Below are positions 1 to 16,425 of a stretch of 64,000 nucleotides of DNA, one piece after another. The DNA is from Candidatus Spongiihabitans sp. GTDB taxonomy: Bacteria; Pseudomonadota; Gammaproteobacteria; Arenicellales; Poriferihabitantaceae. Position 1 is the stretch's first letter, and each line of letters begins with the position of its first letter. The stretch is from NCBI GenBank assembly GCA_965261335.1, contig OZ253450.1, positions 386,772-450,771 of the forward strand. Reading direction: 5' to 3'. Under the pieces are notes generated by a model. That model searched no databases, was not told the origin of the DNA, and saw only the letters and a list, made by a program, of their open reading frames with translations. Both the position numbers and the translations under genes were made by a program.

Positions 1-3000
1 ACAGGGTCGGTAATTCCCGCCAAATCTGTCGCAGTAATGTCTTTACAATCGATTCCGCTGCGGGTTCTGCGGATTGTTAATACGAGTTGCTCCCTAACCG
101 CTTCGGTGCGTGAACAGACGTTTCCTATGGCAGTATCGGCAATGCTGACTGTGAAGGTTTGTTTAGCCGGCGAACTTTCCCCGTCTGTGGCAGTAACGGT
201 GATGGTGGCCGTTCCTATGGCTATTGGCGTAATGGTTACGACGCTATCCGCCACTGTAACAGTGGCGATGTCATCATCACTGGATTGTGCGGTATAGGTC
301 AACGTGTCGTTAGGATCGTTAAATTTACTCGCCACATCCACATCGCGAAGACTACCCTGTGCCACGAGGTTGGTAATATCGGCAATCGTACCTGTAATTG
401 TGGTGGGTTTTTTGACAATGACCATAAAAGTTTGTGTAGCCGTTTGTCCGGCTGTATCGGTAGCCGTTATGGTGATGGTTGTAGCCCCTCCTACGGCTAA
501 TGATGGCGTAACCGTAACTTCACCACTATCATCAACCCCAACGGTGGCGATGGTTTCATCACTGGATTGTGCAGTATAGGTCAAGGTGTCGCCGGGGTCG
601 CTAAAATTACCCGCCACATTCACGGTTTGAGCATCACCACTTGCCATGAGGTCAGTAATATCGGCAATCGTATCTACGGTTGTTGGCACTGCGGCGTTAA
701 TCGCGGTTCCTGTTGGAAGGGTTATTGCGTTTCGTGGGACATCAGCAAACAGGCTCGCAGGGAGCGAAGCAGGCAGTGGGTTTCTACTTAAATTAAGGGT
801 TGTCAAACTGGTTAAGCCCGAGAAAAGCCCAGCAGGCAAGGTGGAAAGTTGGTTGTCGTTTAAGTTCAGTGTTTGTAAGGCACTCAGTCCAGAGAATATA
901 TCGGCGGGCAAGGTGGTTAAGCTGTTATCTTGTAATTGAAGTTCTGTCAGCCCGGTTAAGCCCGCAAAATCACCATTCTTTAGTGGGCTGCTTAGGGCGA
1001 AGGCAGGAGTCCCGCCATCAAAATTTAACGCGGTAATGCTTCCCAAATCTGTCGTAGTAATCTCATCACAAGCGTCTTGATCACTCACTGCCGCGATGAT
1101 TCTTGCCTGAACGTCTGCAGAACGTGAGCAAACTTTGGCTGGATTGGTAGCTGCCACCGTGAAAGTCTGCGTAGCCGTTTGATCCGCTGTATCGGTGGCA
1201 GTGACGGTTATCTCTACGTCCCCTATGGCTACTGGGGTAATGGTTACTACGCTACCGCCCACCATAACGGTGGCGATGGCATCATTACTGGATTCAACGG
1301 TAAAGGTCAACGTGTCTATATCGCTAAAGTAGTCCGCCATATCCACCTGAAGAGGACTACTCATTGCCGCGAGATCAATATCGGCAAGCGCGGTTACAAT
1401 GGCGGGGGGTTGGTTGGTAACGGTTACCACAAAAGTCTCCGTAACCGCTTTATCCGCGCTATCGATGGCAGTAACGGTGATGGTTGTACGCCCGACAGCG
1501 ATGGGTGTAATGGTCACTACACTACCGCTGACCGTAACGGTGGCGGTGTCGTCATTACTAGACATGACTGTAAAGGTTAAAGTCTCGTTTTCGAAACCGT
1601 TAAAGTTACCCGCTACATTCAGCTCACGAGGACTATCCATTGCCACGAGGTCAATATCATTAAGTGCGTTCACAATGGTTGGGGCTGGATTGGTAACGGT
1701 TACCACAAAAGCCTGTGTAACCATTTGACCGATGGTGTCTTCGGCAGTGATGGTGATGGTTGCACTGCCTGCAGCGTTTGCCGTGATGGTGACTGTGCTA
1801 CCCACAACTTCAACGGTAGCGGTGGGAGTGTTACTGGATTCAGTGGTAAAGGTCAACATGTTGTCTGGCTCGCTATCGCTAAAATAACCAGATACATCCA
1901 CCGTGCGAATACTGCTCTGCGCCACAAGGTTATCAATATCCTCAATCGAGTTTACGACTGTGAGCAAACGAACGATGGTTACTCTAATTTCCTGTGTGTA
2001 GGTCGATACGCCGTCCGATACGGTAACTAGAACCCAATATCCTTGGTCTCCTCCACTTGAAATAATATTACCTTGCGAGTCTCTTGGGTTTTTATAATCG
2101 GGAATATACTCGTCTTGGAAGCTTAATTCTCCTGCGTTATTTATCTCAAACAACGCGGCATCGCTATTTGAAAGCGTATAGTTCAAAGTATTCGCGTCCA
2201 TATCGGTCGCGGTGATGGTGGTTACTGCTTTTGTGTTTTCGGGGAGTGTTATTTCATATGGAGACTCACCATTGTTAGAGCTAATCTCGGGTCTATGATT
2301 GGCGACAAGGGTCAAATCGTGCTGATTGTTTGTTCCAAATGAGCCAGTAGCCGCTATAGTAATGTTGTATGAATATTTATCAGTGGGCGGTGCATCGTTT
2401 ATGCTCAGGACACCCGTTGACGTTAGGGTAAACAGACCGACATCTACTCCGCCGACAAGCGTATAGCTCGGGTTTTGACCGCTTAAGGCACTATTCTGAG
2501 CCGTGAAAGTGGTTACTTCGGCTCCTGCTTCAAGTGCCGGGGACACGGATAAATCCCCAGTAATATACCAAGCACCTAGGTTCTGAATAAAATCAGATGC
2601 ACCATCAAGCATATTACTCATATTCGTTACACCGCGGACATCCCAACGGCTAATGTCTTGGTTAAAGTCAGTGGCACCCGAAAACATATTATCCATATCC
2701 GTTACCTTCCTAACATCCCAACGGCTTATGTCTTTGTTAAAGGCAGTGGCATCACGAAACATATACGCCATATTGGTCACATTGCTGACATCCCAATCAC
2801 CAATATCTCCGTCAAAGTCGGTAGCATATTCAAACAGCGTGCCCATACGATCAACATTGCTGACATCCCAATCGCCAATGTCTTGATTAAAGCTTTCAGC
2901 ATACCTAAACATACCCCACATATCTGTTACCCGAGACAAATCAGGTTGGTCGGTTGCGTCTCCTATAAGGTTGGTTGCTCCAGCAAAAGCCAGTCCCATT

Positions 3001-6000
3001 GAAGTCCATTGCTGATTTCCCCATTGGTTAATGGCGATGATACTGTTGGAATTAGTATTGCCATTCCCCGCATCAAAATAAATACGCGGGAAGTCGCCAC
3101 TAATACGGACGGTATGAGTCCCTGTATCGGCGTAAGTATGCGTGGCATTGGCGGTATAGGTCGTTGTATCTATGCCACCATCACCCCAATTTACGTTGTA
3201 ATTATAGCCACTGTCTGTTGTTGGAATGGTGATGGTCAGACCTCCTGGTACGCTCCAAGTGGTCACGAAGTCATCCAGACTCCCAGCAGGCATCTCACCT
3301 GCCCCACCATTGACGGTGATGGTGATGGTTCTACTATCCGTACCACCGCTATTAGTGGCGGTGATGAGGTAGGTGGTTAAAGGTGCAATCGCCGTTGGTG
3401 TGCCTGAAATGGTGCCAGTGGCGGTGCTAAATGACAGTCCATTACCAATGGCTGGGGCGATGCCATAGCTGACAACATTACCACCGCCACTTGAGCTGAT
3501 AGTTATAGGCTGGATAGCAGTGCCCACGGTGGCAACCAGCGTATTGGTGCTGATACTGATAATCGGGGTGGCTACGGGTGGAGTTGGTGCCGCATTGGTG
3601 ATGGTCAATGTGCGGGAATTATTCTCTCCATACCCCCCCGTTGATGTTATATCTAACGTATATGAAGGTGAACTCAGTGCTTGAGCTACGCTTAGAGACC
3701 CATCACTCAGGCTAAATAAATCCGCACCATCTCCGACAAGCGTATAACTGGGAGTTTGTCCGTTAAGTACATTGTTTTGAGCGGTGATGCTTCCTATCAC
3801 AGCATTTATCCCAGCCGTACTACCAACCGTGAACGTTAGCGTTTCTGGTAATGGGTCATCTGACGACAATTCCGCATCGGTAACATACCAAGCACCTAAG
3901 TTTTGGCTAAAGTCATCGGCACTAGCAAACATCCACGTCATATTGCTCACCTTCCTAACATCCCAACCACCGATGTCTTGGTTAAAGGCTCCAGCCTCTC
4001 TAAACATAAACTCCATACTGGTTACATCGCTGACATCCCAATCGCCTATGTCTTTGTTAAAGGCTCCAGCGTCTCTAAACATATTTTTCATATTCGTTAC
4101 ATTGCTGACATCCCAATTACCAATGTCTTGGTTAAAGGCTCTAGCATGCTGAAACATCTCACTCATATCCGTTACCTGAGACAAATCAGGTTTGTCGCTG
4201 GCTGTTCCTGCGAGTGTATCAGCCCCCTTAAAAGCACCTGCCATTGAAGTCCATTGACGACCCGCTCCCCATTGTTTGATGGCAACGATGGTGGATGAGC
4301 CATTGTCTGATCTGGTGCTAGGATAATAAATCCGCGGGAAGGTGCCGCTAATGCGGATGTCATAATCGCCTGCGTCGGCGTAAGTATGCGTGGCACCGCC
4401 TGTATGTACATCGGTGTCACTCACGTTATCGCCCCAATCAACCGTGTAATTATACGTTTCGGTAGAGAATGTTGGAATGGTGATTGTTGGATGGGTGGAT
4501 ACTATTTCCCAAGTGGTCACGAAGTCATCCAGACTCCCAGCAGGTATCTCACCTGCCCCACCATTGACGGCGATGGCTATTGTCGCAGTAGCCGTACCAC
4601 CGCTATTAGTAGCGGTGATGGTGTAGGTGGTTAAAGTTGCAATCGCCGTTGGTGTGCCTGAAATGGTGCCAGTGGCTGTGTCAAGTGTCAGTCCATCGGA
4701 GAGTGTTGGATTGATTGCAAAGAGAGCAACCACACCACCGCCACTTGAACTGATGGTTATCGCATCAATGGGACTGCCCACGGTGGCAACCAGCGTATTG
4801 GTGCTGATACTGATACTCGGGGCTAATTCAACGATTGTTACTCTAATTTCCTGTGTGCGGGTCGATACGCCATCCGATACAGAAACTAGAACGCGATATT
4901 CTTGGTCGGCGTTTTGGTCAACCACCCCATCTGAGTTTCTTGGGTTTTCATAATCTGGAATATAGGCATCCTTGAAACTTAATACGCCTGAATCCGTTAT
5001 CTCAAACAACGCGACATCGCTATTTGAAAGCGTATAGTTCAAAGTATTCGCGTCCATATCCGTCGCGGTGATGGTGGTTACCGGCTGTGTATTTTCGGGG
5101 AGCGTTATTGCATATGGAGACTCACCATTGTTAGAGCTAATCTCGGGTCTATGATTGGCGACAAGGGTCAAATCGTGCTGATTGTTTGTTCCAAATGAGC
5201 CAGAGCCAGTAGCCGCTATAGTAATGTTGTATGAAGTTTTATCAGCGGACGGTGCATCGTTTATGCTCAGGACTCCCGTTGACGTTAGGGTAAACAGACC
5301 GCCATCTACTCCGCCGGCAAGCGTATAGCTCGGGCTTTGACCGCTTAAAACACTATTCTGAGCCGTGAAAGTGGTTACTTCGTCTCCTGCTTCAAGTGCC
5401 GGGGACACGGATAAATCCCCAGTAATATACCAAGCACCTAGGTTTTGGTTAAAGGCAGTGGCATCACGAAACATATACGTCATACTCCTTACACCGCGGA
5501 CATCCCAACGGCTTATGTCTTGGTTAAAGGCTCTGGCATCACGAAACATGCTCGACATATTGGTCACATTGCTGACATCCCAATCACCAATGTCTTGGTT
5601 AAAGGCTGCGGCATTAGAAAACATCCCTTGCATATTATTTACACTGCTGACATCCCAATCACCAATGTCTTGGTCAAAGGCAATGGCATTCTGAAACATC
5701 GAATGCATACTATTTACACTACTGACATCCCAACGGCTTATGTCTTGGTTAAAGGCAGTGGCACGAGCAAACATCCACGTCATATTGGTCACATTGCTGA
5801 CATCCCAATCACCAATGTCTCGGCTAAAGGCCATCGCATTGTAGATACTCCCTAACATAAAACTCATATTAGTTACACCACTGACATCCCAATCACCAAT
5901 GTTTTGGTCAAAGGCTTCGGCATTCTGAAACATCGAGTTCATCTTGGTTACCCGAGATAAATCAGGCGTATCGCTGGCTTGTCCAGCAAGGTTGGTCGCA

Positions 6001-9000
6001 CCCCTAAAAGCACCATTCATTGAAGTCCATTGCCCTGTTCCCCATTGGTCAATGGCGATGATACTGTTGGAATTTTGGTTGCCGTTGTTATCGTGGGTAT
6101 TAAAATAAATACGCGGGAAACTGCCGCTGATACGGACTTCATAATCACCTGCGACGGCATAAGTGTGCGTGGCGTTTTCGGTCTGGTTCGTGCTGGTGCT
6201 GGTGGGACTATCACCCCAATTAACGGTGTAATGATACGTTTCGGTAGCGTATGTTGGAATGGTGATGGTCTGATCTGCGGTTACCTGCCAAGTGGTCACA
6301 AAGTCGTCTGTTGCCAATGCTTCATCACTAACGGTAATGGTGAATCCTTTAGAATAATTAAGTGTGCCATCATTCACTTGGATTCTGATGCTATAACTTG
6401 ATTTTCCTGCGGCGGGTGTTGCGAGTATTCTTAAACTGGTGCCGTCAATTATGAACAATGCGTTGTCTGTATCACCATTTCCAGCGGCTAATGTATATGT
6501 ATATGTTTCATCCGCATCCGCATCGATAACAGATAATAAACCAACTCGCTGGTGAGCCGTTGCACTGCGCACCACTGCTGTTGAAGAAAGCCCAATGTCG
6601 GTCGGGGCTGTTTCGCTGACTGGCGTGATTCTTACGATAATTTCTTGTGTATCAAAAGATATTCCATCCGATACAGAGACTAGAACGCGATATTCTTGGT
6701 CTGCGTTTTGGTCAACCACCCCATCTGAGTTTATTGGGTTTTCATAATCTGGAACACGGTCGGCTTTGAATTTTAATGTTCTTGAGTTTCCTGTTCCAGT
6801 TATCTCAAATAAATCAGAATCATACCTAGAAATAGAATAGGTCAAAATATCATTGGTATCCCCATCCGTAGCGGTGATGGTGGTGACTTCTCGTGTGTTT
6901 TCGGGGAGTGTAATTGCATATGTAGAAGCACCACCATTGGGGGCGGTAATCTGCGTAATATGATTGGTGACAAGCGTCAAATCGTGCTGATTGTTTGTTC
7001 CAAATGAGCCAATAGCCGCTATGGTAATGTTGTATGAAGTTTTTCCAGCGGGCGGTACGTCGTTTATGCTCAGGACACCTGCTGAAGTTAGGGCAAACAA
7101 ATTGGCATCACCTCCGGCGACAAGCGTATAGTTCGGATTTTGACCGCTTAAGGCACTATTCTGAGCCGTGAAAGTGGTTACTTCGTCTCCTGCTTCAAGT
7201 GCCGGGGACACGGATAAATCCCCAGTGATATACCAAGCACCTAGGTTTTGACTAAAAACAGGAGATGTGCCAAACATATTATTCATATTCGTTACACTGC
7301 GGACATCCCAACCGCTTATGTCTTTGTTAAAGACAGCGCCATTAGCAAACATCCACTGCATATCGGTCACATTGCTGACATCCCAACCGCTTATGTCTTT
7401 GTTAAATACGTCAGTATATTCAAACAGCGTGCCCATATCGGTCACATTGCTGACATTCCAATTGCCAATGTCTTGATTGAATTTTTCAGCATACCTAAAC
7501 ATACTCCGCATATTTGTTACCCGAGACAAATCAGGTTGGTCGAGTGTTGTTTGTCCTGCTAGGTTGGTTGCTCCACTAAAAGCCAGTTCCATTGAAGTCC
7601 ATTGCTGACTTCCCCATTGGTTAATGGCGATGATACTGTTGGAATTATCATTGCCTTCCCTCGCATTAAAATAAATACGCGGGAAGTCGCCACTAATACG
7701 GACGGTATAAGTCCCTGCATCGGCGTAAGTATGCGTGGCGTTGCCGGTCTGGCTCGTGTCGGTGCTACCATCGCCCCAATTTACCTTGTAACTATAGCCA
7801 CTGCCTGTTGTTGGAATGGTGATGGTCTGACTTGCCGCTACGCTCCAAGTAGTAACAAAATCATCTGTTTCTAATACGTCATCGCTCACTGTAATGGTGA
7901 ATGCCTTAGCGAAATCATTTGTGCCGTCATTAACATTGATTCTAATGCTGTAGCTTGATTTACCTGTGGCAGGTGTTGCGAGTATTCTCAAACTGGTGCC
8001 GTTAATGGTGAACAATAGGTTGTCATCATCACCATTTCCATCGGCTAACGTATATGTATATATTTCACCCGCATCCTCATCGATAACAGATAATAAACCA
8101 ACCCGCTGGCGAGCCGTTGCACTACGCACCACTGCTGTTGAAGAAAGCCCAATGTCGGTCGGGGTTGTTTCGTTGACGGGCATGATTGTTACGATAATGG
8201 TTTGCGTATCGGTCGATATTCCATCCGATACAGAGACTAGAACGCGATATTCTTGGTCGGCGTTTTGGTCAACCACCCCGAGTGAGTTTCTTGGGTTTTC
8301 ATAATCTGGAATAAAGTCATCTTTGAAACTTAATGTTCTTGAGTTTCCTGTTCCAGTTATCTCAAACAGTGCCACATCATCATTCGAAAGCGTATAGCTC
8401 AAAGTAGCATTCTCATCTCCATCTGTAGTGGTGATGGTGGTGACCGCCCGGGTATTTTCAGGGAGTGTTATTGCATAGTGAGAAACGCCATTGTTAGAAG
8501 TAATCTCGGGTCTATGATTGGCGACAAGGGTTAAAGATCGGTAGTAGATCCGTGTGTCGCTAGCGCTCTTCTTAATCACATTACCACTAACTGATATGCG
8601 GATATTATATTCATTTTTTGTAATTTCTGGACTTCCCTTTATGCTCAACACGCCTGTGCTCGTTATTGTAAAGAGATCATCATCAGTGCCACCATCAAGT
8701 CCATAGGTCGGGTTTTGACCGTTTAAGTAACTATTCTGAGCCGTGAATCGGGTGACTTCGTCCCCTGCTTCAAGTGTCGGAGGCACGGACAAATCCCCCG
8801 TAATGTACCAAAGCCCGAAGTTGGCGACAAAAAAACGAAAATTAGTTCCATCAATCATATTCTCCATATTGGTTACATTGCGGACATCCCAAGCACTGAT
8901 GTCATGCGTCATAAATGTGGCATTCTGAAACATATAACTCATGTCTGTAAGATTGCGGGTAACCCAACCGCCGATAGGTTGGTTAAAACCGAAGGCTCTT

Positions 9001-12000
9001 CTAAACATAGCCGACATATTGGTTACATTGCGGGTAACCCAATCGCCAATAGGTTGGTTAAAGATATGATTATAATTAAACATATTGTTCATGTCTGTAA
9101 CCTCGCCTGTATTCCAACCACCGATAGGTTGATTAAAGGAGCTGTGCTGAAACATTCCCGATAAATCGGTTACGCTACTGACATCCCAACCACCGATAGG
9201 TTGGTTAAAGAGTGCGGTATGAGCAAACATATTCGACATATTGGTCACCTTGCTGACATCCCAATCGCCGATGTTTTGGTTAAAGGCATCGGCATTATTA
9301 AACATATTGTTCATGTCGGTTACAGTCGATAAATCAGGTCTATCGTTTGTATCTCCAACCAAGTTACTACAGCCATAGAAGGATTTTTCCATAGAAGTCC
9401 AGCGTCCATTGCCCCATTGCTTGATGGCAATGATCTTGTCCTTGTCGCCTTCGTTATTAAAATAAATGCGCGGGAAGGTGCCACTGATACGGACTTCATA
9501 ATCATCTGCATCAGCGTAAGTATGCACGGCATTGCCTGTATAAGTAGCCGTGTCTGCTGCTTCACCACTGCCCCAATTCACGGTGTAATGATACGTTTCG
9601 GTAGCGTATGTCGGAATGGTGATGCTCTGACCTGCCGTTACCCGCCAAGTGGTAACAAAATCATCTGTTGCCAATGCGTCCTCGCTAACGGTAATGGTGA
9701 ATGTATTAGAGAAATCATTTTCACCATCATTTACATTGATTCTGATGCTGTAGCTTGATTTGCCGGCGGCAGGTGTGTCCTTTATTCTTAAACTGGTGCC
9801 GTCAATTATGAACGCTTCGTTATCTGCATCACCCACTCCAGTTATCAATGTGTATGTGTATTCGTCACCCGTCTCTGTATCAGTATTAGACAAGAACCCA
9901 ATCCGGGTGTTGGCGACTGCATTGCGAACCACTGCTTCTGAAGAAAGCATAATATTGGTCGGGGCTGGGTTCTCACCAAACATAAAGTCTCGGTGATTGT
10001 TTGTTCCAAATAAAAAATTCGCCATCGCTGATACGCTAATATCATATTTAGTTTTTGTGGGGTCGGGTGCTAGGTTTATGGTCAACACACCTGCTGGGGT
10101 TAGGGTAAAGAGATCGGCATCAGTGCCAGAAAGAGAATAAACCGAGCTGTGACTTCTTAAATGAGCATTCTGAGCCATGAAAGTGGTTACTGTACCACCT
10201 GCTTCAAGAGTGGGGGAAATAACCAAGTCAGGCACAGCAATATACCAAAGCCCAAGATTTTGATTAAAGGCGGTGGCACCAGCAAACATCGAATTCATGA
10301 ACGTTGCATTTATATTCCTCACGTCCCAACGGCTGATGTCTTGGTTAAAGGCTACGGCATTCTGAAACATCGTTTTCATATCTCCTACGAGACTCACATC
10401 CCAATCACCAATGTCTTGGTTAAAGGCAGTGGCAAAACTAAACATACTCTTCATATTCGTTACACTGCTGACATCCCACTTGCCGATGGCTTGGTTAAAG
10501 GACCGGGCATTCCGAAACATGTGCGACATATTCGTTACACTGCTGACATCCCACTTGCCGATGGCTTGGTTAAAGTACTCGGTACTCTGAAACATGTACG
10601 ACATATTCGTTACACTGCTGACATCCCAATCACTAATGTCTTGATTAAAAGCCATCCTATTGTAGGCACTCCCTAACATAGACATCATATTGGTAACACT
10701 GCTGACATCCCAATTACCAATGTTTTGGTTAAAGGCTTGGGCATTATCAAACATACCGTTCATATCGGTTAGCCGAGATAAATCAGGCGTATCGCTGGCT
10801 TGTCCAGCAAGGTTGGTCGCACCCCTAAAAGCACCATTCATTGAAGTCCATTGCCCTGTTCCCCATTGGTCAATGGCGATGATACTGTTGGAATTTTGGT
10901 TGCCGTTGCTATTGAAGTTATTAAAATAAATACGCGGGAAACTGCCGCTGATACGGACGCTATAAGTCCCTGAATCGGCGTAAGCATGCGTGGCGTTGCC
11001 GGTCTCGCTCGTGGCGTTGCTATCATCGCCCCAATTTACGGCGTAATCATAGCCATCACCTGTTGTTGGAATGGTAATGGTCTGACCTGCCGTTACCTGC
11101 CAAGTGGTCACGAAGTCGTCTGTTGCCAATGCTTCATCACTAACGGTAATGGTGAATGTTTTGGAGTAACCAAGTACGCCATCATTCCCTCGGATTCGGA
11201 TTCTGATGCTGTAGATTGTCCTTTCTGCGGTGGGTGTTGCGTTTATTCTTAAACTGCTACCGTCAATGGTGAATGCGTCATTGTCATCATCACCATTTCC
11301 AGCGGCTAACGTATATGTATATATTTCACCCGCATCCGCATCGATAACAGATAATAAACCAACCCGCTGGCGAGCCATTGCACTACGCACCACTGCTGTT
11401 GAAGAAAGCCCAATGTCGGTCGGGTCTGTTTCGTTGACTGGCGTGATTCTTACGATAATTTCTTGTGTATCAAAAGATGTTCCATCCGATACAGTAACCA
11501 GAACACGATATTCTTGGTCGGCGTTTTGGTCAACTACCCCATCTGAGTTTCTTGGGTTTTCATAATCTGGAATAAAGTCATCTTTGAATCTTAATGTTCT
11601 TGAGTTTCCTGTCCCTGTTATCTCAAACAGTGCGGCATCGTTATTTGAAAGCGTATAGGTCAAAGTATCATTGGTATCCCCATCCGTAGCGGTGAGGGTG
11701 GTCACTTCTCGTATGTTTTCGGGGAGCGTTATTGCATATGGAGACTCACCATTGTTAGAGCTAATCTCGGGTCTATGATTGGCGACAAGGGTCAAATCGT
11801 GCTGATTGTTTGTTCCAAATGAGCCAGTAGCCGCTATGGTAATGTTGTATGAAGTTTTATCAGCGGGCGGTGCATCGTTTATGCTCAGGACACCCGTTGA
11901 CGTTAGGGTAAACAGACCGACATCTACTCCGCCGACAAGCGTATAGCTCGGGTTTTGACCGCTTAAGGCACTATTCTGAGCCGTAAACCGAGTTACTTCG

Positions 12001-14126
12001 GCTCCTGCTTCAAGTGCCGGGGACACGGATAAATCCCCAGTGATATACCAAGCACCTAGGTTTTGACTAAAAGCAGGTGTGTTGTTACCAAGCATATTAC
12101 TCATATTCGTTACACCGCGGACATCCCAACGGCTAATGTCTTGGTTAAAGGCAGTGGCACTAGCAAACATCCACTCCATATTGGTCACATTGCTGACATC
12201 CCAATCACCAATATCTTGGTTAAAGTCGTCAGTATGTTCAAACAGCGTGCCCATACGCTCAACATTGCTGACATCCCAATCGCCGATGTCTTGATTGAAT
12301 TTTTCAGCATGCCTAAACATACCCCACATATCTGTTACCCGAGACAAATCAGGTCGGTCGGTTGTTGTTTGTCCTGCTAGGTTGGTTGCTCCACTAAAAG
12401 CCTGTTCCATTGAAGTCCATTGCTGATTTCCCCATTGGTCAATGGCGATGATACTGTTGGAATTATCATTGCCATTCCCCGCATTAAAATAAATACGCGG
12501 GAAGTCGCCACTAATACGGACGGTATGAGTCCCTGTCACGGTGTAAGCATGCGTGGCATTGCCAGTATAGGTCGTTGTATCTATGCCATCATCACCCCAA
12601 TTTACGGTGTAACTATAGCCACTGCCTGTTGTTGGAATGGTGATCGTCTGACCGTCCGTTACGCTCCAAGTGGTCACGAAATCACCCGAGTCACCTAACG
12701 GACTCCCAGCAGGCATCTCGCCTGCTCCACCATTAACAGTGATGGTGATGGTTCCACTATCCGTACCACCACTATTAGTGGCGGTGATGAAGTAGGTGGT
12801 TAAAGTTGCAATCGCCGTTGGTGTGCCTGAAATGGTGCCAGTGGCTGTGCTAAATGACAGTCCAGCGGGAAGTGTTGGATCGATGCTGTAGCTCTCAACA
12901 TTACCACCGCCACTTGAGCTGATAGTTATATCCGCGATAGCAGTGCCCACGGTGGCAACCAGCGTATTGGGGCTGATACTGATACTCGGGGCGGCTATGG
13001 GGGCTGTTATTGCCGCATTGATGATGGTCAATGTGCGGGAATTATTCTCTCCATACCCCCCCGTTGATGTTATACCTAACGTATATGAAGGTGAACTCAG
13101 TGCTTGAGCTACGCTTAGAGACCCACCAATCAGGCTAAATAAATCCGCACCATCTCCGACAAGCGCATAACTGGGAGTTTGTCCGTTAAGTTCATTGTTT
13201 TGAGCGGTGATGCTTCCTATCACAGCACCTATCCCAGCCGTACTACCAACCGTGAACGTTAGCGTTTCTGGTAATGGGTCATCTGACGGCAATTCCGCAT
13301 CGGTAATATACCAAGCGCCTAGGTTTTGGATAAAGCCAAAGCCAGGGGCAGATGAAGAGGCTAAAAAAAACATCTCGCTCATATCGATAACCTTCCTAAC
13401 ATCCCAACCACCAATGTCTTGGTTAAAGACTCTAGCACCACTAAACATAAACGCCATACTGGTCACATCGCTGACATCCCAATTGCCTATGTCTTGGTTA
13501 AAGGCGGTAGCGTCTCTAAACATCTCACTCATATCCGTTACCCGAGACAAATCAGGTTTGTCGCTGGCTGTTCCTGCGAGTGCATAAGCCCCCTTAAAAG
13601 CACCCGCCATTGAAGTCCATTGACGACCCGCTCCCCATTGTTTGATGGCAACGATGGTGGATGAGCCATTGTCTGAGGAGGTGCTAGGATAATAAATCCG
13701 TGGGAAGGTGCCGCTAATGCGGATGTCATAATCGCCTGCGTCGGCGTAAGTATGCGTGGCACCGCCTGTATGTACATCGGTGTCACTCACGTTATCGCCC
13801 CAATCAACCGTGTAATTATACGTTTCGGTAGAGAATGTTGGAATGGTGATTGTTGAATGGGTGGATACTATTTTCCAAGTGGTAACGAAGTCATTCAAGC
13901 CTTGTGCATTAGCCAGCTGTGCGACAAACAATAGTGCAAAGAAAGTGGCGACGAATAGGCACTTCAGAGGTGCGGACAAAATACCACAACGATTTGATGT
14001 GGCTGTCCGTGCTGTTTTGAGTTGCGTTGCAATTGAAATCATCGCCCTACCCCATAAGCCGAACGCGGATTGTGGGGTGGTAACTATATGATTATTAATG
14101 GTTTTTATGATGAACGATGATTTCAT
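1..14126 (-). CDS. Giant modular surface/adhesin-like protein; 5' end complete, 3' end beyond the left window edge (>=4708 codons in window). Signal peptide, 8 iterated modules (TTW..WGD..THxY..FPRIYF beta-sandwich + DUF285/26-residue repeats + cadherin-like/He_PIG-like domains), then Ig-like domains and LRR blocks
   Basis: Hand translation of the minus strand from ATG 14126-14124 gives [13 protein letters not shown]...[59 protein letters not shown]. This has a hydrophobic core plus an AxA-type cleavage site; an alternative ATG lies at 14042. The frame (first codon base = 2 mod 3) was translated by hand over 14126-~10500, 9340-6280, 1142-900 and 299-240 without a stop. The motif D-F-V-T-T-W recurs in this same frame at 13892, 12683, 11117, 9662, 7862, 6305, 4526 and 3272. 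The ORF track lists no minus-strand ORF in this frame across 14 kb, as expected if the ORF has no stop in the window. Repeats of the type [20 protein letters not shown] match the DUF285/TIGR02167-type surface repeat. Segments such as [15 protein letters not shown]...[30 protein letters not shown] are cadherin-like. Confidence 0.85.
2250..4530. repeat. Copy A of the ~2.2-kb intragenic duplication (giant-gene modules 7-8)
   Basis: See copy B. Shadow ORF pairs are near-identical: 3784..4152 with 13207..13587, and 3009..3380 with 12420..12698. Confidence 0.85.
11730..13895. repeat. Copy B of a ~2.2-kb intragenic long-range duplication (giant-gene modules 1-2)
   Basis: Long stretches are identical or near-identical to 2250-4530. 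For example, 11881-11940 is identical to 2401-2460, and 11941-12060 is near-identical to 2461-2580. Offsets run from ~9480 down to ~9367 nt, implying a ~23-codon indel inside the DUF285 block. Shadow ORFs 13538..13786 and 4172..4420 differ at only a few residues. Confidence 0.85.
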
Positions 14127-14213
14127 TTGGAATATTCTCTTGATTGAAGTATTCGTGAGGCTGATGGGTTGAATTCACCGCCCTCACTCGACAGCGTTAC
14201 TGTAGCACAACTA

Positions 14214-14857
14214 ATTGAAAATTGAAAATTGAGAAGCAACCTAGTCCGTCATTCCTGCGGAAGCAGGAATCCAGTAAAATAAATATTCTTATCTAATTGA
14301 AAATTGAAAATTGAAAATTGAAAATTGAGAAGCAACCTAGTCCGTCATTCCTGCGGAAGCAGGAATCCAGTAAAATAAATATTCTTATCTAATTGAAAAT
14401 TGAAAATTGAAAATTGAGAAGCAACCTAGTCCGTCATTCCTGCGGAAGCAGGAATCCAGTAAAATAAATATTCTTATCTAATTGAAAATTGAAAATTGAA
14501 AATTGAAAATTGAAAATTGAAAATTGAAAATTGAGAAGCAACCTAGTCCGTCATTCCTGCGGAAGCAGGAATCCAGTAAAATAAATATTCTTATCTAATT
14601 GAAAATTGAGAAGCAACCTAGTCCGTCATTCCTGCGGAAGCAGGAATCCAGTAAAATAAATATTCTTATCTAATTGAAAATTGAAAATTGAAAATTGAAA
14701 ATTGAGAAGCAACCTAGTCCGTCATTCCTGCGGAAGCAGGAATCCAGTAAAATAAATATTCTTATCTAATTGAAAATTGAAAATTGAAAATTGAGAAGCA
14801 ACCTAGTCCGTCATTCCTGCGGAAGCAGGAATCCAGTAAAATAAATATTCTTATCCA
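14214..14857. repeat. Nested tandem repeat array: 7 x [ (ATTGAAA)n + identical 68-bp hairpin-containing core ], n = 2,4,3,7,1,4,3
   Basis: The core ATTGAGAAGCAACCTAGTCCGTCATTCCTGCGGAAGCAGGAATCCAGTAAAATAAATATTCTTATCTA starts at 14228, 14324, 14413, 14530, 14605, 14701 and 14790. The only mismatch is at 14856. Heptamer tracts start at 14214, 14296, 14392, 14481, 14598, 14673 and 14769. Unit lengths are 82, 96, 89, 117, 75, 96 and 89 bp, i.e. 68+7n. Confidence 0.95.
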
Positions 14858-14972
14858 TAGCCGTCATTCTCAATTATCAACACCCTTATAAGGGGGCTTT
14901 GGGCTAACATCGGTGTCAAAAGCGGTCTCAATCGCTCATTTATAAGTATAAACGCCCTCTCTCTGCGTGCTT

Positions 14973-15000
14973 TTGTTATTGCCAGCAAGCAGGTTATAAT
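14973..15000 (+). promoter_or_regulatory. Candidate sigma70-type promoter for the aminotransferase gene
   Basis: Consensus -10 TATAAT at 14995-15000, 16-bp spacer, and -35-like TTGTTA at 14973-14978. It lies ~55 nt upstream of ATG 15055. Sequence match only. Confidence 0.35.
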
Positions 15001-15054
15001 TTAAGCATAATTAAACTGGCAGGGCTACCCTAAACATTTCCGCGAACAAACCCT

Positions 15055-16425
15055 ATGCGAACCTATGATACGACAGAATTGCGTCAAATAGATGCAAATC
15101 ATCATATACACCCATTCACTGACCATAAGGCGATGTACAAAAGTGGTACACGCATTATTACGAGTGCGGAAAATATCTATATTTATGACAGCGATGGGAA
15201 TCGCTATCTCGATGCTATGTCTGGTTTGTGGTGCGTCAATATCGGCTATGGCAGAACCGAGTTAGCGGAAGTTGCAAAATCACAGATGGAGCAACTGCCT
15301 TACTACAATAGTTTCTTTCAATGTGCGCAATTACCTGCGGTGGAATTGGCAGAAATACTTGCTGAGGTAACGCCGCCACAAATGAAGCGCGCGTTTTTCG
15401 GCTGTTCTGGCTCTGATGGCAATGACACCGTTTTGCGTTTGGTACGCTACTTCTGGGAAATTCAAGGACATGCCGAACGTAATATCGTGATTAGCAGACG
15501 CAATGCCTATCACGGTAGCACGATGGCAGGTGCGAGTCTTGGTGGCATGGCTGCCATGCATGCACAAGGGGGTTTGCCGATTCCCAATATCGAGCATATC
15601 GATCAACCCTATTTCTATGGCGAGGGTGGCAATGTTAGCCTCGAAGAATTTGGATTGCAGCGTGCCCAAGCACTCGAACAGCGCATATTAGAATTAAGCC
15701 CCGAGCGCGTTGCAGCGTTTATTGCCGAACCCATTCAGGGTGCTGGTGGGGTGATTATTCCGCCGGATAATTATTGGCCAGAAATCAACCGCATCTGCCA
15801 GAAATATGATGTATTGCTGTGCGCCGATGAAGTGATTTGCGGTTTTGGGCGAACCGGCGAATGGTTTGGCTCGGACACCTTTGGCATCGAAGCCGATGTG
15901 ATGACACTGGCAAAAGGATTATCCGCTGGCTATCAACCCATCAGCGCGGTTATGATTGCCGATAGAATCGCTACGATTCTCGACCACAACGGTGGCGAGT
16001 TTGTGCATGGTTATACCTATTCCGGTCACCCTGTAGCATGTGCGGTGGCATTAAAAAATATCCAAATTTTGCGTGATGAACGCATTATCGAAAAGGCACG
16101 CGAGAACACGATGGATTATTTTCAATCCAAAATTGCTGCCCTTGAATCACATCCTTTGGTCGGCGAAGCACGCACCAAGGGGTTTCTTGGCGGTTTGGAA
16201 CTGGTTGCAGATAAACAGAGCAAACGTCGATTCGACGAGGACGGCAGTGCGGGTACACTCTGTCGAGAAAATTGTCTGAAAAATGGTGTAGTGGTGCGTG
16301 CTGTGGACGATACAATGGTGTTATGTCCACCTCTGATTATTACCCGCGCACAAATTGATGAATGTTACGATCTCATTTGGACGAGCCTAGAACAATCATT
16401 GGTCGAACTTAAAAATCGTGCTTAG
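15055..16425 (+). CDS. Class-III (omega) PLP-dependent aminotransferase, SpuC/putrescine- or beta-alanine--pyruvate transaminase-like
   Basis: 456 aa. Family motifs are present: LWCVNIGYG, AYHGST, FIAEPIQGAGGVI, DEVICGFGRTG, and the PLP-lysine context TLAKGLSAGYQP. Substrate specificity is not determinable from the sequence. Confidence 0.85.
   Translation: MRTYDTTELRQIDANHHIHPFTDHKAMYKSGTRIITSAENIYIYDSDGNRYLDAMSGLWCVNIGYGRTELAEVAKSQMEQLPYYNSFFQCAQLPAVELAEILAEVTPPQMKRAFFGCSGSDGNDTVLRLVRYFWEIQGHAERNIVISRRNAYHGSTMAGASLGGMAAMHAQGGLPIPNIEHIDQPYFYGEGGNVSLEEFGLQRAQALEQRILELSPERVAAFIAEPIQGAGGVIIPPDNYWPEINRICQKYDVLLCADEVICGFGRTGEWFGSDTFGIEADVMTLAKGLSAGYQPISAVMIADRIATILDHNGGEFVHGYTYSGHPVACAVALKNIQILRDERIIEKARENTMDYFQSKIAALESHPLVGEARTKGFLGGLELVADKQSKRRFDEDGSAGTLCRENCLKNGVVVRAVDDTMVLCPPLIITRAQIDECYDLIWTSLEQSLVELKNRA

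Follow-up and report, generated by a model that had tools for sequence, protein, structure and literature searches.

Introduction

Dispersed intergenic heptamer repeats are found in several bacterial groups, among them the STRR sequences of cyanobacteria. The TAACTGA repeats of Beggiatoaceae (PMC4679880) and the G-rich heptamers of Xanthomonas and Nostoc (PMC4692102) are likewise dispersed intergenic heptamers. A heptamer tract of another kind accompanies hmw1A/hmw2A in nontypeable Haemophilus influenzae, namely one (ATCTTTC)n tract transcribed in the 5'-UTR, whose repeats pair with a G-rich region of that 5'-UTR to form a long hairpin cut by RNase III (PMC12721329). Neisseria intergenic mosaic elements (NIMEs) are arrays in which dRS3/NTS hairpins delimit repeat units of 50-150 bp (PMC11893778). 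Ssn single-strand nucleases recognise the NTS hairpin, which as ssDNA is the target of SsnA (Chenal et al. 2025, PMC11893778), the GTC preceding the palindrome and the C following it being important for SsnA cleavage and binding (PMC11893778).

Here we describe an array that recalls each of these systems, found in the window, the whole 64,000-nucleotide stretch of DNA analysed. Its layout is of the NIME type, with tandem hairpin units within the 50-150-bp range, in intergenic DNA and near surface-protein genes, and another copy lies before a paralogous adhesin gene. As in NIMEs, tandem units of ~70-120 bp, each with a 20-bp ATTCCN-N8-NGGAAT palindrome, stand beside a surface-protein gene of a host-associated bacterium and vary between strains, while the hairpin keeps the oriented flanks of NTS (CGTCA... 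and ...ATCCAG). Unlike dRS3/NTS, the stem has T:A where those have C:G, and unlike NIMEs the units are all identical and are separated by variable-length heptamer microsatellites, which NIMEs lack. With hmw the locus shares a 7-bp SSR upstream of a large adhesin gene and a strain-dependent repeat number, but its seven tracts alternate with hairpin units, no complementary partner is present, and the tracts are probably upstream of the promoter. The tandem 7-nt units, confined to intergenic DNA with many loci per genome, resemble those of STRR, Beggiatoaceae and Xanthomonas/Nostoc, and as with dispersed heptamer repeats the AATTGAA word is cross-phylum and its arrays are direct and inverted. In contrast to such repeats, the heptamers are here joined to an NTS-type hairpin core, and this composite is amplified as one higher-order unit; an NTS half-site near the heptamers was seen in 0/120 (AATTGAA)n loci from metagenomes. 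We consider it rather likely that the array represents a hypervariable NIME-type mosaic repeat, as known from Neisseria, and that it stems from a dispersed element, amplified in tandem, of a sponge-symbiont lineage close to Candidatus Spongiihabitans.

Architecture of the Array and Its Hairpin Core

The intergenic region separates a giant surface protein gene (3-14126, minus strand, running off the window), which encodes 14 BspA-like DUF285 repeats together with LRR, He_PIG, Big_2 and PKD domains and has an ortholog of 6276 aa, from a class III aminotransferase gene (15055-16425, plus strand). The nested repeat before the giant gene, first noted in the preliminary description, is confirmed, and as stated there it fills most of the 928-bp intergenic region (643/928 bases). 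In effect, the array (14213-14855, no strand assigned) is tandem at two levels and reads 7 x [(AATTGAA)n + 67/68-bp constant unit], each unit consisting of the tract followed by the constant sequence AATTGAGAAGCAACCTAGTCCGTCATTCCTGCGGAAGCAGGAATCCAGTAAAATAAATATTCTTATC(T). The seven plus-strand tracts contain, in order, n = 2, 4, 3, 7, 1, 4 and 3 heptamers and lie at 14213-14226 (promoter-proximal for the giant gene), 14295-14322, 14391-14411, 14480-14528, 14597-14603 (with an allele-specific junction), 14672-14699 and 14768-14788, which places them 86-660 nt upstream of ATG 14126; the gap between array and ATG, previously given as 88 bp, measures 86 nt. The first constant unit occupies 14227-14294 on the plus strand, the others starting at 14323, 14412, 14529, 14604, 14700 and 14789. 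All seven are 100% identical, and with their tracts they make up full units of 75-117 bp.

Beyond the array, at 14861-14879 (plus strand), an orphan left half-hairpin, CCGTCATTC, runs into an inverted heptamer arm of two units. This arm (14866-14879), ATTCTCA ATTATCA, is the reverse complement of TGATAAT TGAGAAT and is the only inverted one in the window, where the tracts are otherwise direct; with the half-hairpin it is homologous to the inverted arm of a single-unit element at the locus of the paralogous adhesin (L122). A 12-bp palindrome, CCCTTATAAGGG, follows at 14883-14894 (no strand assigned). On the side of the giant gene the heptamers abut a 26-mer, AGTTGTGCTACAGTAACGCTGTCGAG (14187-14212, minus strand), which is identical in two other strains (L120 and L121) and in the paralog L122. 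Its word depth is 10-27x that of the single-copy flank, and it is thus part of a dispersed element; similarly, a 42-nt stretch at 14912-14953 (plus strand), with ~28x word depth in run X1, represents another dispersed repeat. Rfam gave only sub-threshold, repeat-driven FtrB matches (26 bits vs a gathering score of 66), and no intrinsic terminators were found at the locus.

Each constant unit carries an NTS/dRS3-type hairpin with an 8-bp stem and a GGAA loop, CGTCATTCCTGCGGAAGCAGGAATCCAG, the first copy of which lies at 14247-14274 (plus strand). All seven are forward on the plus strand, with exact 27-mers starting at 14248, 14344, 14433, 14550, 14625, 14721 and 14810. The 27-nt core occurs seven times vs 0.00 expected from shuffles, which excludes a chance origin, and every copy in the 64-kb window is within the array, i.e., beside the accessory adhesin gene only. 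Relative to the NTS consensus CGTCATTCCCGCGMAVGCGGGAATCYRG the hairpin has three mismatches, two of which, C>T at position 10 and G>A at position 19, form a compensatory stem pair, the third being at loop position 14. The GTC that precedes the palindrome and the C that follows are retained, as are the oriented flanks GTC and ATCCAG. The exact hairpin 27-mer is present in >119 loci from many phyla, with a small GIY-YIG ORF directly beside it in 3/119. A metagenome scan for the unit-specific 27-mer returned no matches.

The hairpins could point to a role at the level of DNA, in which seven same-strand NTS-type sites are cleaved by a resident Ssn nuclease (GIY-YIG, cd10448) that would restrict or shape the recombination of incoming or single-stranded DNA around the adhesin gene, with nicks next to the tracts that could destabilise them. 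The retention of bases critical for SsnA binding and cleavage and the confinement of the hairpins to the neighbourhood of the adhesin gene agree with such a role, as does the clustered and patchy divergence of that gene (see below); furthermore, NTS repeats of Neisseria are concentrated near genes for surface proteins and have a modulating effect on transformation, and such repeats are enriched in animal and plant symbionts (PMC11893778). However, no ssn gene was found either in the window or among related loci totalling ~100 kb, and the hairpin matches neither the published NTS pattern CGTCATTCCCGCGMAVGCGGGAATCYRG (≤1 mismatch) nor dRS3 (ATTCCC-N8-GGGAAT) nor the degenerate SRM string. Moreover, Nm SsnA lost its activity when the palindrome was altered but the stem was kept (Chenal et al., PMC11893778), and so a cognate enzyme would be needed for the window hairpin. 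We therefore regard Ssn cleavage of these hairpins as quite improbable.

Allelic Variation

We compared the window with two strains whose right flanks match that of the window at 99.8% and 99.0% identity. The three assembled alleles (window, L120 and L121), which belong to different strains by SNPs, contain 7, 4 and 5 units, and their tract lengths all differ. L120 has tracts of 26, ~6, ~5 and 3 copies, whereas the five units of L121 carry long mixed AATTGAA/AATTGAG/AATTGAT tracts, as read from an 11x long-read contig with possible errors and with irregular 6-nt units resembling read errors. In the promoter-proximal tract alone, the copy number is 2 for the window, 26 for L120 and ~13 for L121. 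Contigs encoding the neighbouring genes provided no further alleles among those searched. In runs X2-X4, the flanks are present at 406-479x and no unitig crosses the n = 1 junction of the window. Thus, given the different L120 and L121 alleles and the three runs without this junction, the locus is hypervariable between strains.

Run X1, the one run with the window allele, offers a view within a sample. An exact unitig of 43 nt (14584-14626) crosses the n = 1 junction with a depth of 3615 vs 4474 for the single-copy flank (81%), and the unitig shared by the unit ends and the following heptamers has a depth of 25000, or ~5.6 copies vs 6 expected. The window allele dominates this run, at 81-93% of the expected depth, in a view from Logan unitigs (k=31) that leaves tracts of at least four units unresolved, is confounded by the multi-copy 26-mer and only bounds heterogeneity. 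Since one allele dominates, rapid within-host switching is not evident. The same depths bear on the possibility that the nested array is an assembly artefact, with a repeat mis-collapsed or mis-expanded. Such repeats are hard to assemble, and the irregular 6-nt units of L121 at 11x could be seen in that light, but the exact unitigs over the n = 1 junction, the near-expected copy number of the shared junction and the presence of similar arrays at this site in independent long-read assemblies render an artefact exceedingly improbable.

The preliminary description had gone further and hypothesised that the tracts form a contingency switch. Their hypermutability, like that of the unit number, is borne out by the three alleles on an evolutionary scale, while switching or tuning of the gene is unsupported. 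In its full form this scenario makes the tracts an evolved contingency locus, in which the number of heptamers or units switches or grades transcription of the giant adhesin gene in the manner of the (ATCTTTC)n tracts of hmw1A/hmw2A. A 7-bp SSR immediately upstream of a giant surface-protein gene, with strong variation among near-identical strains and the same element upstream of the paralogous adhesin (L122), would fit it, whereas the dominance of a single allele in run X1 would not.

Promoter Candidates and the Adhesin Gene

The giant gene starts at ATG 14126-14124 on the minus strand, preceded by a weak SD, AAGAGA (14141-14136), for which the paralog has AAGGAG at the same position. A weak candidate promoter on the same strand (14199-14228) comprises a -35 TTTTCA (14228-14223), an 18-nt spacer and a TGn-extended -10 TACAGT (14204-14199). 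It occupies the stretch that separates the array from the gene, its -35 falling within the first tract. This best minus-strand candidate (TTTTCA-18-TGcTACAGT) reaches 7.5 bits in a sigma-70 PWM scan, where the best match in shuffled sequence has a median of 9.0; nothing in the region, the aminotransferase promoter included, beats the best shuffle match. That promoter, probably TTGTTA-16-TATAAT (14973-15000, plus strand), lies on the aminotransferase side of the array, which is >115 bp upstream of it, and its core is conserved in a sister species (L123). TTGAAA, proposed as a near-consensus -35 hexamer in each heptamer, does occur in every one of them on the plus strand and agrees with TTGACA at 5/6 positions. 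The identity of the 26-mer AGTTGTGCTACAGTAACGCTGTCGAG in the paralog was also considered as support for the promoter, and most of its weight was withdrawn in view of the multi-copy nature of this sequence.

Several of these features count against graded or switched transcription. The candidate promoter is gene-proximal to the array and has its -35 in a periodic tract, so that changes in n cannot alter the -35/-10 spacing. The precedent of hmw finds no parallel either, since the fold of the putative leader (14127-14900, minus strand) gives only local 8-bp hairpins (z = +0.31) and no long repeat-containing hairpin. No RNA run contains the locus, the one labelled 'RNA?' (X8) carrying only other copies of the repeat. 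The intrinsic curvature envisaged from A-tracts every 7 bp has to be rejected on geometric grounds: at 10.5 bp per turn, a 7-bp spacing rotates each successive A-tract by 240 degrees, and the bends therefore cancel every 21 bp.

The adhesin gene itself has diverged faster than its surroundings: over 1728 codons it shows 40 nonsynonymous and 16 synonymous changes, vs 9 differences in 7.3 kb of flank, and its divergence is clustered and patchy. Faster divergence than the flank is typical of genes under variable selection and is in line with a contingency locus.

Relatives of the Repeat

The heptamer is a member of a widespread TGANAAT microsatellite family, and (AATTGAA)≥4 was found in >120 metagenome contigs from many biomes and across phyla. 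Words of the module have a depth 40-120x that of the single-copy flank. In the sister species, members of the family occupy the space between convergent genes or follow immediately on stop codons. One sister-species locus (L123) contains four heptamer arrays in 11 kb, differs from L124 at one array and has the core of the L122 element in flipped orientation, next to (AATTGAN)n. Three sister lineages lack both the adhesin gene and its array at the orthologous site. Occurrence at 3' ends, in convergent intergenic regions and in numerous unrelated metagenomes weakens a promoter-specific role and adds to the evidence against a contingency locus, which we judge to be rather unlikely. A regulatory effect of the array on the giant gene is likewise possible, at a low probability.

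Another alternative is that the TGANAAT units serve as a series of binding sites for a protein that recognises DNA or RNA and would cover the upstream region, the candidates being an Avd-like PF05635 four-helix-bundle protein or a Fur-type regulator. On an unrelated contig (L177), a PF05635 ('23S rRNA IVS protein') gene (E = 6e-26) is bordered by nested (AATTGAR)n and inverted (ATTCTCM)n arrays, and inverted (AATTGAN)/(NTCAATT) arms 20-90 nt apart occur in 10/120 metagenome loci. We also take the variant unit TGATAAT to equal the Fur 7-1-7 half-site. Nevertheless, the PF05635 gene is seen only in L177 and is absent from the window and related loci, the window arms are direct rather than inverted, and the unit of the window matches the putative Fur half-site at only 6/7 positions. 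Coating by such a protein thus appears highly improbable.

Origin and Implications

The single-copy element at L122, upstream of the paralogous adhesin P0054, is ancestor-like, with true inverted arms, and gives the basic order of the NIME-type repeat: an (AATTGAN)n arm, a 68-bp core with the NTS/dRS3-type hairpin, the orphan half-hairpin, an inverted (NTCAATT)n arm and the 26-mer. In this context, we put forward that the arm and core were repeated seven times in the window and that the inverted arm was reduced to two units. Slipped-strand mispairing inside a tract would add or remove 7 bp, whereas unequal exchange between any two tracts or cores would add or remove whole units and create new tract lengths, and would also keep the cores identical by concerted evolution. 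The giant adhesin gene has a single plausible proximal promoter, and the array would stand directly upstream of it and overlap its -35, so that length changes might alter the upstream promoter context but not the spacing of the core promoter.

The locus joins two puzzling classes of repeats, the NTS/dRS3 hairpin, recently shown to be the target of Ssn single-strand nucleases, and a cross-phylum heptamer microsatellite, in one fast-changing higher-order unit. It is thus a convenient natural substrate for asking whether nicking at hairpins drives microsatellite instability, and whether such mosaics are portable regulatory DNA outside Neisseria is also a question to which it is suited. More speculatively, NTS-type hairpins and TGANAAT heptamers might be coupled in sponge symbionts into a single instability module that amplifies itself, in which a resident Ssn-type nuclease nicks the hairpin when the DNA there becomes single-stranded, the nick leads to slippage, unequal exchange or inversion in the tracts, and the arrays are portable hypermutation and promoter-context cassettes that travel with giant adhesin genes. 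We hold this to be improbable; if true, it would tie dRS3/NTS hairpins and bacterial heptamer arrays, both unexplained, into one mechanism. Should the array have no effect on expression, it would still be a useful strain marker for populations of sponge symbionts. Giant adhesins are thought to mediate the attachment of symbionts to the sponge host, and a mutational hot spot directly before a giant adhesin gene could diversify its expression among symbiont lineages.

A Nested Array between Divergent Genes

The 928-bp divergent intergenic region (14127-15054) has a G+C content of 36%, versus 46% for the window, and its flanking genes are as the preliminary description gave them: to the left a giant minus-strand ORF that begins at ATG 14126, stays open up to the window edge and contains 14 DUF285 stretches together with LRR, He_PIG, Big_2 and PKD, and to the right a class III aminotransferase gene (15055-16425). 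The nested heptamer array reported there is confirmed by its unit structure and by the unitigs of sequencing run X1. It is a two-level tandem array (14213-14855) of seven units, each composed of (AATTGAA)n, with n = 2, 4, 3, 7, 1, 4, 3 in order, followed by a constant segment of 67/68 bp, AATTGAGAAGCAACCTAGTCCGTCATTCCTGCGGAAGCAGGAATCCAGTAAAATAAATATTCTTATC(T), whose seven copies are 100% identical. An orphan half-hairpin with a 2-unit inverted arm (14861-14879) lies at the right end. The 27-nt hairpin core occurs seven times in the array versus 0.00 expected, and neither further copies of it nor further heptamer-family arrays were found elsewhere in the 64-kb window. In run X1 an exact unitig crosses the allele-specific n = 1 junction at a depth of 3615, versus 4474 for the single-copy flank, and the junction common to all units reaches 25000 (~5.6 copies, 6 expected), which rules out an assembly artefact. 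Between the array and the promoter of the aminotransferase, 42 nt (14912-14953) reach ~28x the single-copy word depth in run X1, with sharp boundaries in many contigs; this stretch is another dispersed repeat.

Variation between Strains and Lineages

The array evolves far faster than its surroundings. Two more alleles of the locus were assembled, in L120 (a 1.6-Mb contig, 457x) and L121 (a 12.7-kb contig, 11x), whose right flanks match the window at 99.8% and 99.0% identity, so that the three represent different strains of one species. The L120 allele comprises four units, whose tracts count 26, about 6, about 5 and 3 copies; in the L121 allele the five units have long mixed tracts, and some irregular units there may be errors, given the low 11x coverage. 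Furthermore, runs X2, X3 and X4 contain the flanks at 406-479x with zero unitigs over the n = 1 junction, thus indicating other alleles there. In a sister lineage, two strains from one sample (L123 and L124, 417x and 161x) differ by an extra (CAATTCC)3 block (L123 7562-7601 versus L124 7562-7615), and so in one of three heptamer arrays, the other two being unchanged.

The giant gene, whose ortholog is 6276 aa long, has close relatives labelled by their source as 'BspA family leucine-rich repeat surface protein'. The aminotransferase shares 81-85% identity with proteins labelled by their sources as Candidatus Spongiihabitans sp., a genus of sponge symbionts within the Arenicellales (Gammaproteobacteria). 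The sister lineages L123/L124, L126 and L127 have a SulP transporter or a GCS2 enzyme, and no adhesin, upstream of the aminotransferase (L123 4597-5000, L126 4573-5000, L127 4300-5000). Thus, the giant gene and the array are accessory DNA here, and the gene itself is a species-specific insertion in the window's species. At the same place, L123 carries another element that combines a hairpin with heptamers (ATTATCA x2).

L120 is the strain closest to the window. A comparison of the two over the initial 1728 codons of the giant gene gives 40 nonsynonymous and 16 synonymous codon differences, versus 9 base differences over 7.3 kb on the other side of the array. Between these two strains the adhesin gene (window 8943-14126, L120 1-5186) is diverging ~7 times faster than the housekeeping flank. 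The differences are clustered (e.g., codons 824-851, 916-970 and 1071-1126), which suggests gene conversion among internal repeats or diversifying selection.

Origin of the Array

A contig of the same metagenome, L122, carries a paralogous adhesin, P0054, with an 80% identical N-terminus and a single unit upstream. The order of this element is a divergent CCDC90-like coiled-coil gene with its leader, AATTGAT AATTGAA AATTGAG, the core, AAAACCTAGCCGTCATTC, (TCAATTT)3, the 26-mer AGTTGTGCTACAGTAACGCTGTCGAG, a 75-nt leader and the ATG. The good SD (AAGGAG) ahead of the paralog's first ATG supports ATG 14126 as the start of the giant gene. The 26-mer and its adjoining heptamers are identical across the window, L120, L121 and L122, and the half-hairpin with inverted arm at window 14861-14879 has its homologue in the right part of the L122 element. 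In three runs, array-unit words occur at 40-120 times the single-copy flank depth and the 26-mer at 10-27 times; all parts belong to a multi-copy family in the sampled runs. The simplest reading is that the window locus is one L122-like element with its [arm + core] part amplified sevenfold. From the structure, we infer that, once a first duplication had occurred, the array would gain or lose whole units by unequal exchange between any pair of tracts or cores, which would also generate new tract lengths and homogenise the cores, and that slippage would change n by one.

P0054 is itself bracketed by inverted heptamer arrays (L122 400-530 and 10402-10450), with (TCAATTT)3 upstream and (ATTGATA)n from 6 nt past the stop codon. 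In L123, (AATTGAN)n precedes the start in the CCDC90-like gene family by 45-60 nt. The unit core is found there in reversed orientation beside (AATTGAN)n, indicating that a core between inverted arms can flip.

Promoters and the Switch Hypothesis

The tracts had been proposed to form a contingency (phase or rheostat) switch of the giant gene. The hypermutability is real, as the strain alleles demonstrate, but the anatomy does not favour a regulatory switch. The best sigma-70 candidate of the giant gene (minus strand; TTTTCA 14228-14223, 18-nt spacer, TGcTACAGT with the -10 at 14204-14199) straddles the array boundary within the conserved 26-mer. It scores 7.5 bits versus a shuffle median of 9.0, its host 26-mer is multi-copy, and it is regarded as a candidate only. 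If it is the true promoter, the array lies upstream of it; a classical spacer-length mechanism is excluded, since the periodic tract leaves the core spacing unchanged by keeping a -35-like hexamer at constant distance. The aminotransferase has a better, probable promoter of its own (TTGTTA-16-TATAAT, 14973-15000), located on its side of the array and with a core conserved in the sister species. The plus-strand 'promoters' in the tracts (TTGAAA-17-GAAAAT) are by-products of periodicity. Nor do phased A-runs add curvature, as had been suggested: by established DNA geometry, with 10.5 bp per turn, A-tracts each 7 bp lie 240 degrees apart and three successive bends cancel.

In the hmw adhesin genes of Haemophilus influenzae, invoked earlier as a precedent, the transcribed tract pairs with a G-rich segment to form an RNase III substrate (PMC12721329). 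In contrast, the putative leader of the giant gene has no long hairpin with a repeat partner and folds into just the seven local hairpins (z = +0.31), which argues against the parallel. The depth of the window allele in run X1 is 81-93% of that expected at two junctions, and rapid switching inside one host population, which 31-mer unitigs resolve poorly, is not evident. A contingency or rheostat locus controlling the adhesin gene is unlikely.

Kinship of the Hairpin Core

In the core, CGTCATTCCTGCGGAAGCAGGAATCCAG, a stem of 8 bp closes a GGAA loop, at about -8 kcal/mol for DNA. It is an NTS/dRS3-type hairpin, here regarded as a relative rather than an established member. The Neisseria Transformation Sequence is defined as CGTCATTCCCGCGMAVGCGGGAATCYRG (Chenal et al. 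2025, PMC11893778). Compared with it, the window hairpin is altered at a single loop base and, in a compensatory manner, at one stem pair (C:G to T:A), and for this reason matches none of the published search patterns (NTS with at most 1 mismatch, dRS3, SRM). It retains the GTC before and the C after the palindrome, the positions most important for cleavage and binding by SsnA, a small GIY-YIG nuclease that binds and cuts NTS solely as single-stranded DNA (PMC11893778). NTS hairpins are clustered near surface-protein genes, and related motifs are widespread, above all in symbionts (PMC11893778). The exact 27-mer GTCATTCCTGCGGAAGCAGGAATCCAG occurs at >119 loci in species-representative genomes of many phyla (Dehalococcoidia, Thermodesulfobacteriota, Nitrospirota, Planctomycetota, CPR phyla, Rickettsia and others), two Ca. 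Spongiihabitans genomes among them, and a small GIY-YIG ORF abuts the hairpin at 3 of these. A Neisseria-like role at the DNA level via an Ssn nuclease appears distinctly improbable.

Around the 27-mer, an inverted relative, CTGGATTCCCGNNNNCGCGGGAATGAC, is often found opposite (L001-L119), and period-7 tandem repeats lie within 200 nt at 8 of 119 loci; for periods 5, 6 and 9 the count is 2 or fewer, and for 8, 10 and 11 it is none. Many NTS-type hairpins are broken within the loop, after GCGGAAG, by an element ending in AGACTGTGCAA(A/G)AACC (L123 7426, 8335 and 11054; loose ends at window 14630-14636 in runs X1 and X4). The element resembles an IS or MITE with the hairpin loop as its target. 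IS110-family transposase genes occur close by in L123 and L124.

The Heptamer Family

The window heptamer belongs to the TGANAAT family, whose words read AATTGAA, AATTGAG and AATTGAT when the phase is shifted. In the sister species, arrays built from these words or from their reverse complements are common (four in 11 kb of L123); they lie in 5', 3' and convergent intergenic positions. (AATTGAA)>=4 is found in >120 metagenome contigs from gut, rumen, soil and water samples; an inverted partner arm lies 20-90 nt off in 10 of 120, and an NTS half-site near the heptamer array in none of the 120. An unrelated metagenome contig (L177, 517-1000 and 1380-1624) contains a nested array that strikingly resembles the window's, with five (AATTGAR)n tracts split by a constant 30-nt segment. 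It adjoins inverted (ATTCTCM)n arrays and a gene for a PF05635 '23S rRNA IVS protein' (E = 6e-26), which the arrays flank. The variant unit TGATAAT, complement ATTATCA (L122 10408-10450; window 14873-14879), has the same sequence as the half-site of the Fur 7-1-7 box, to which the window unit TGAAAAT is a 6/7 match. That the array serves to bind a protein is very improbable.

The array is probably a mosaic repeat, neutral by default. The locus joins known kinds, the NIME/NTS arrays and heptamer microsatellites; what is new is the fusion of an NTS-type hairpin and heptamers in one higher-order, fast-changing unit, in a sponge symbiont.
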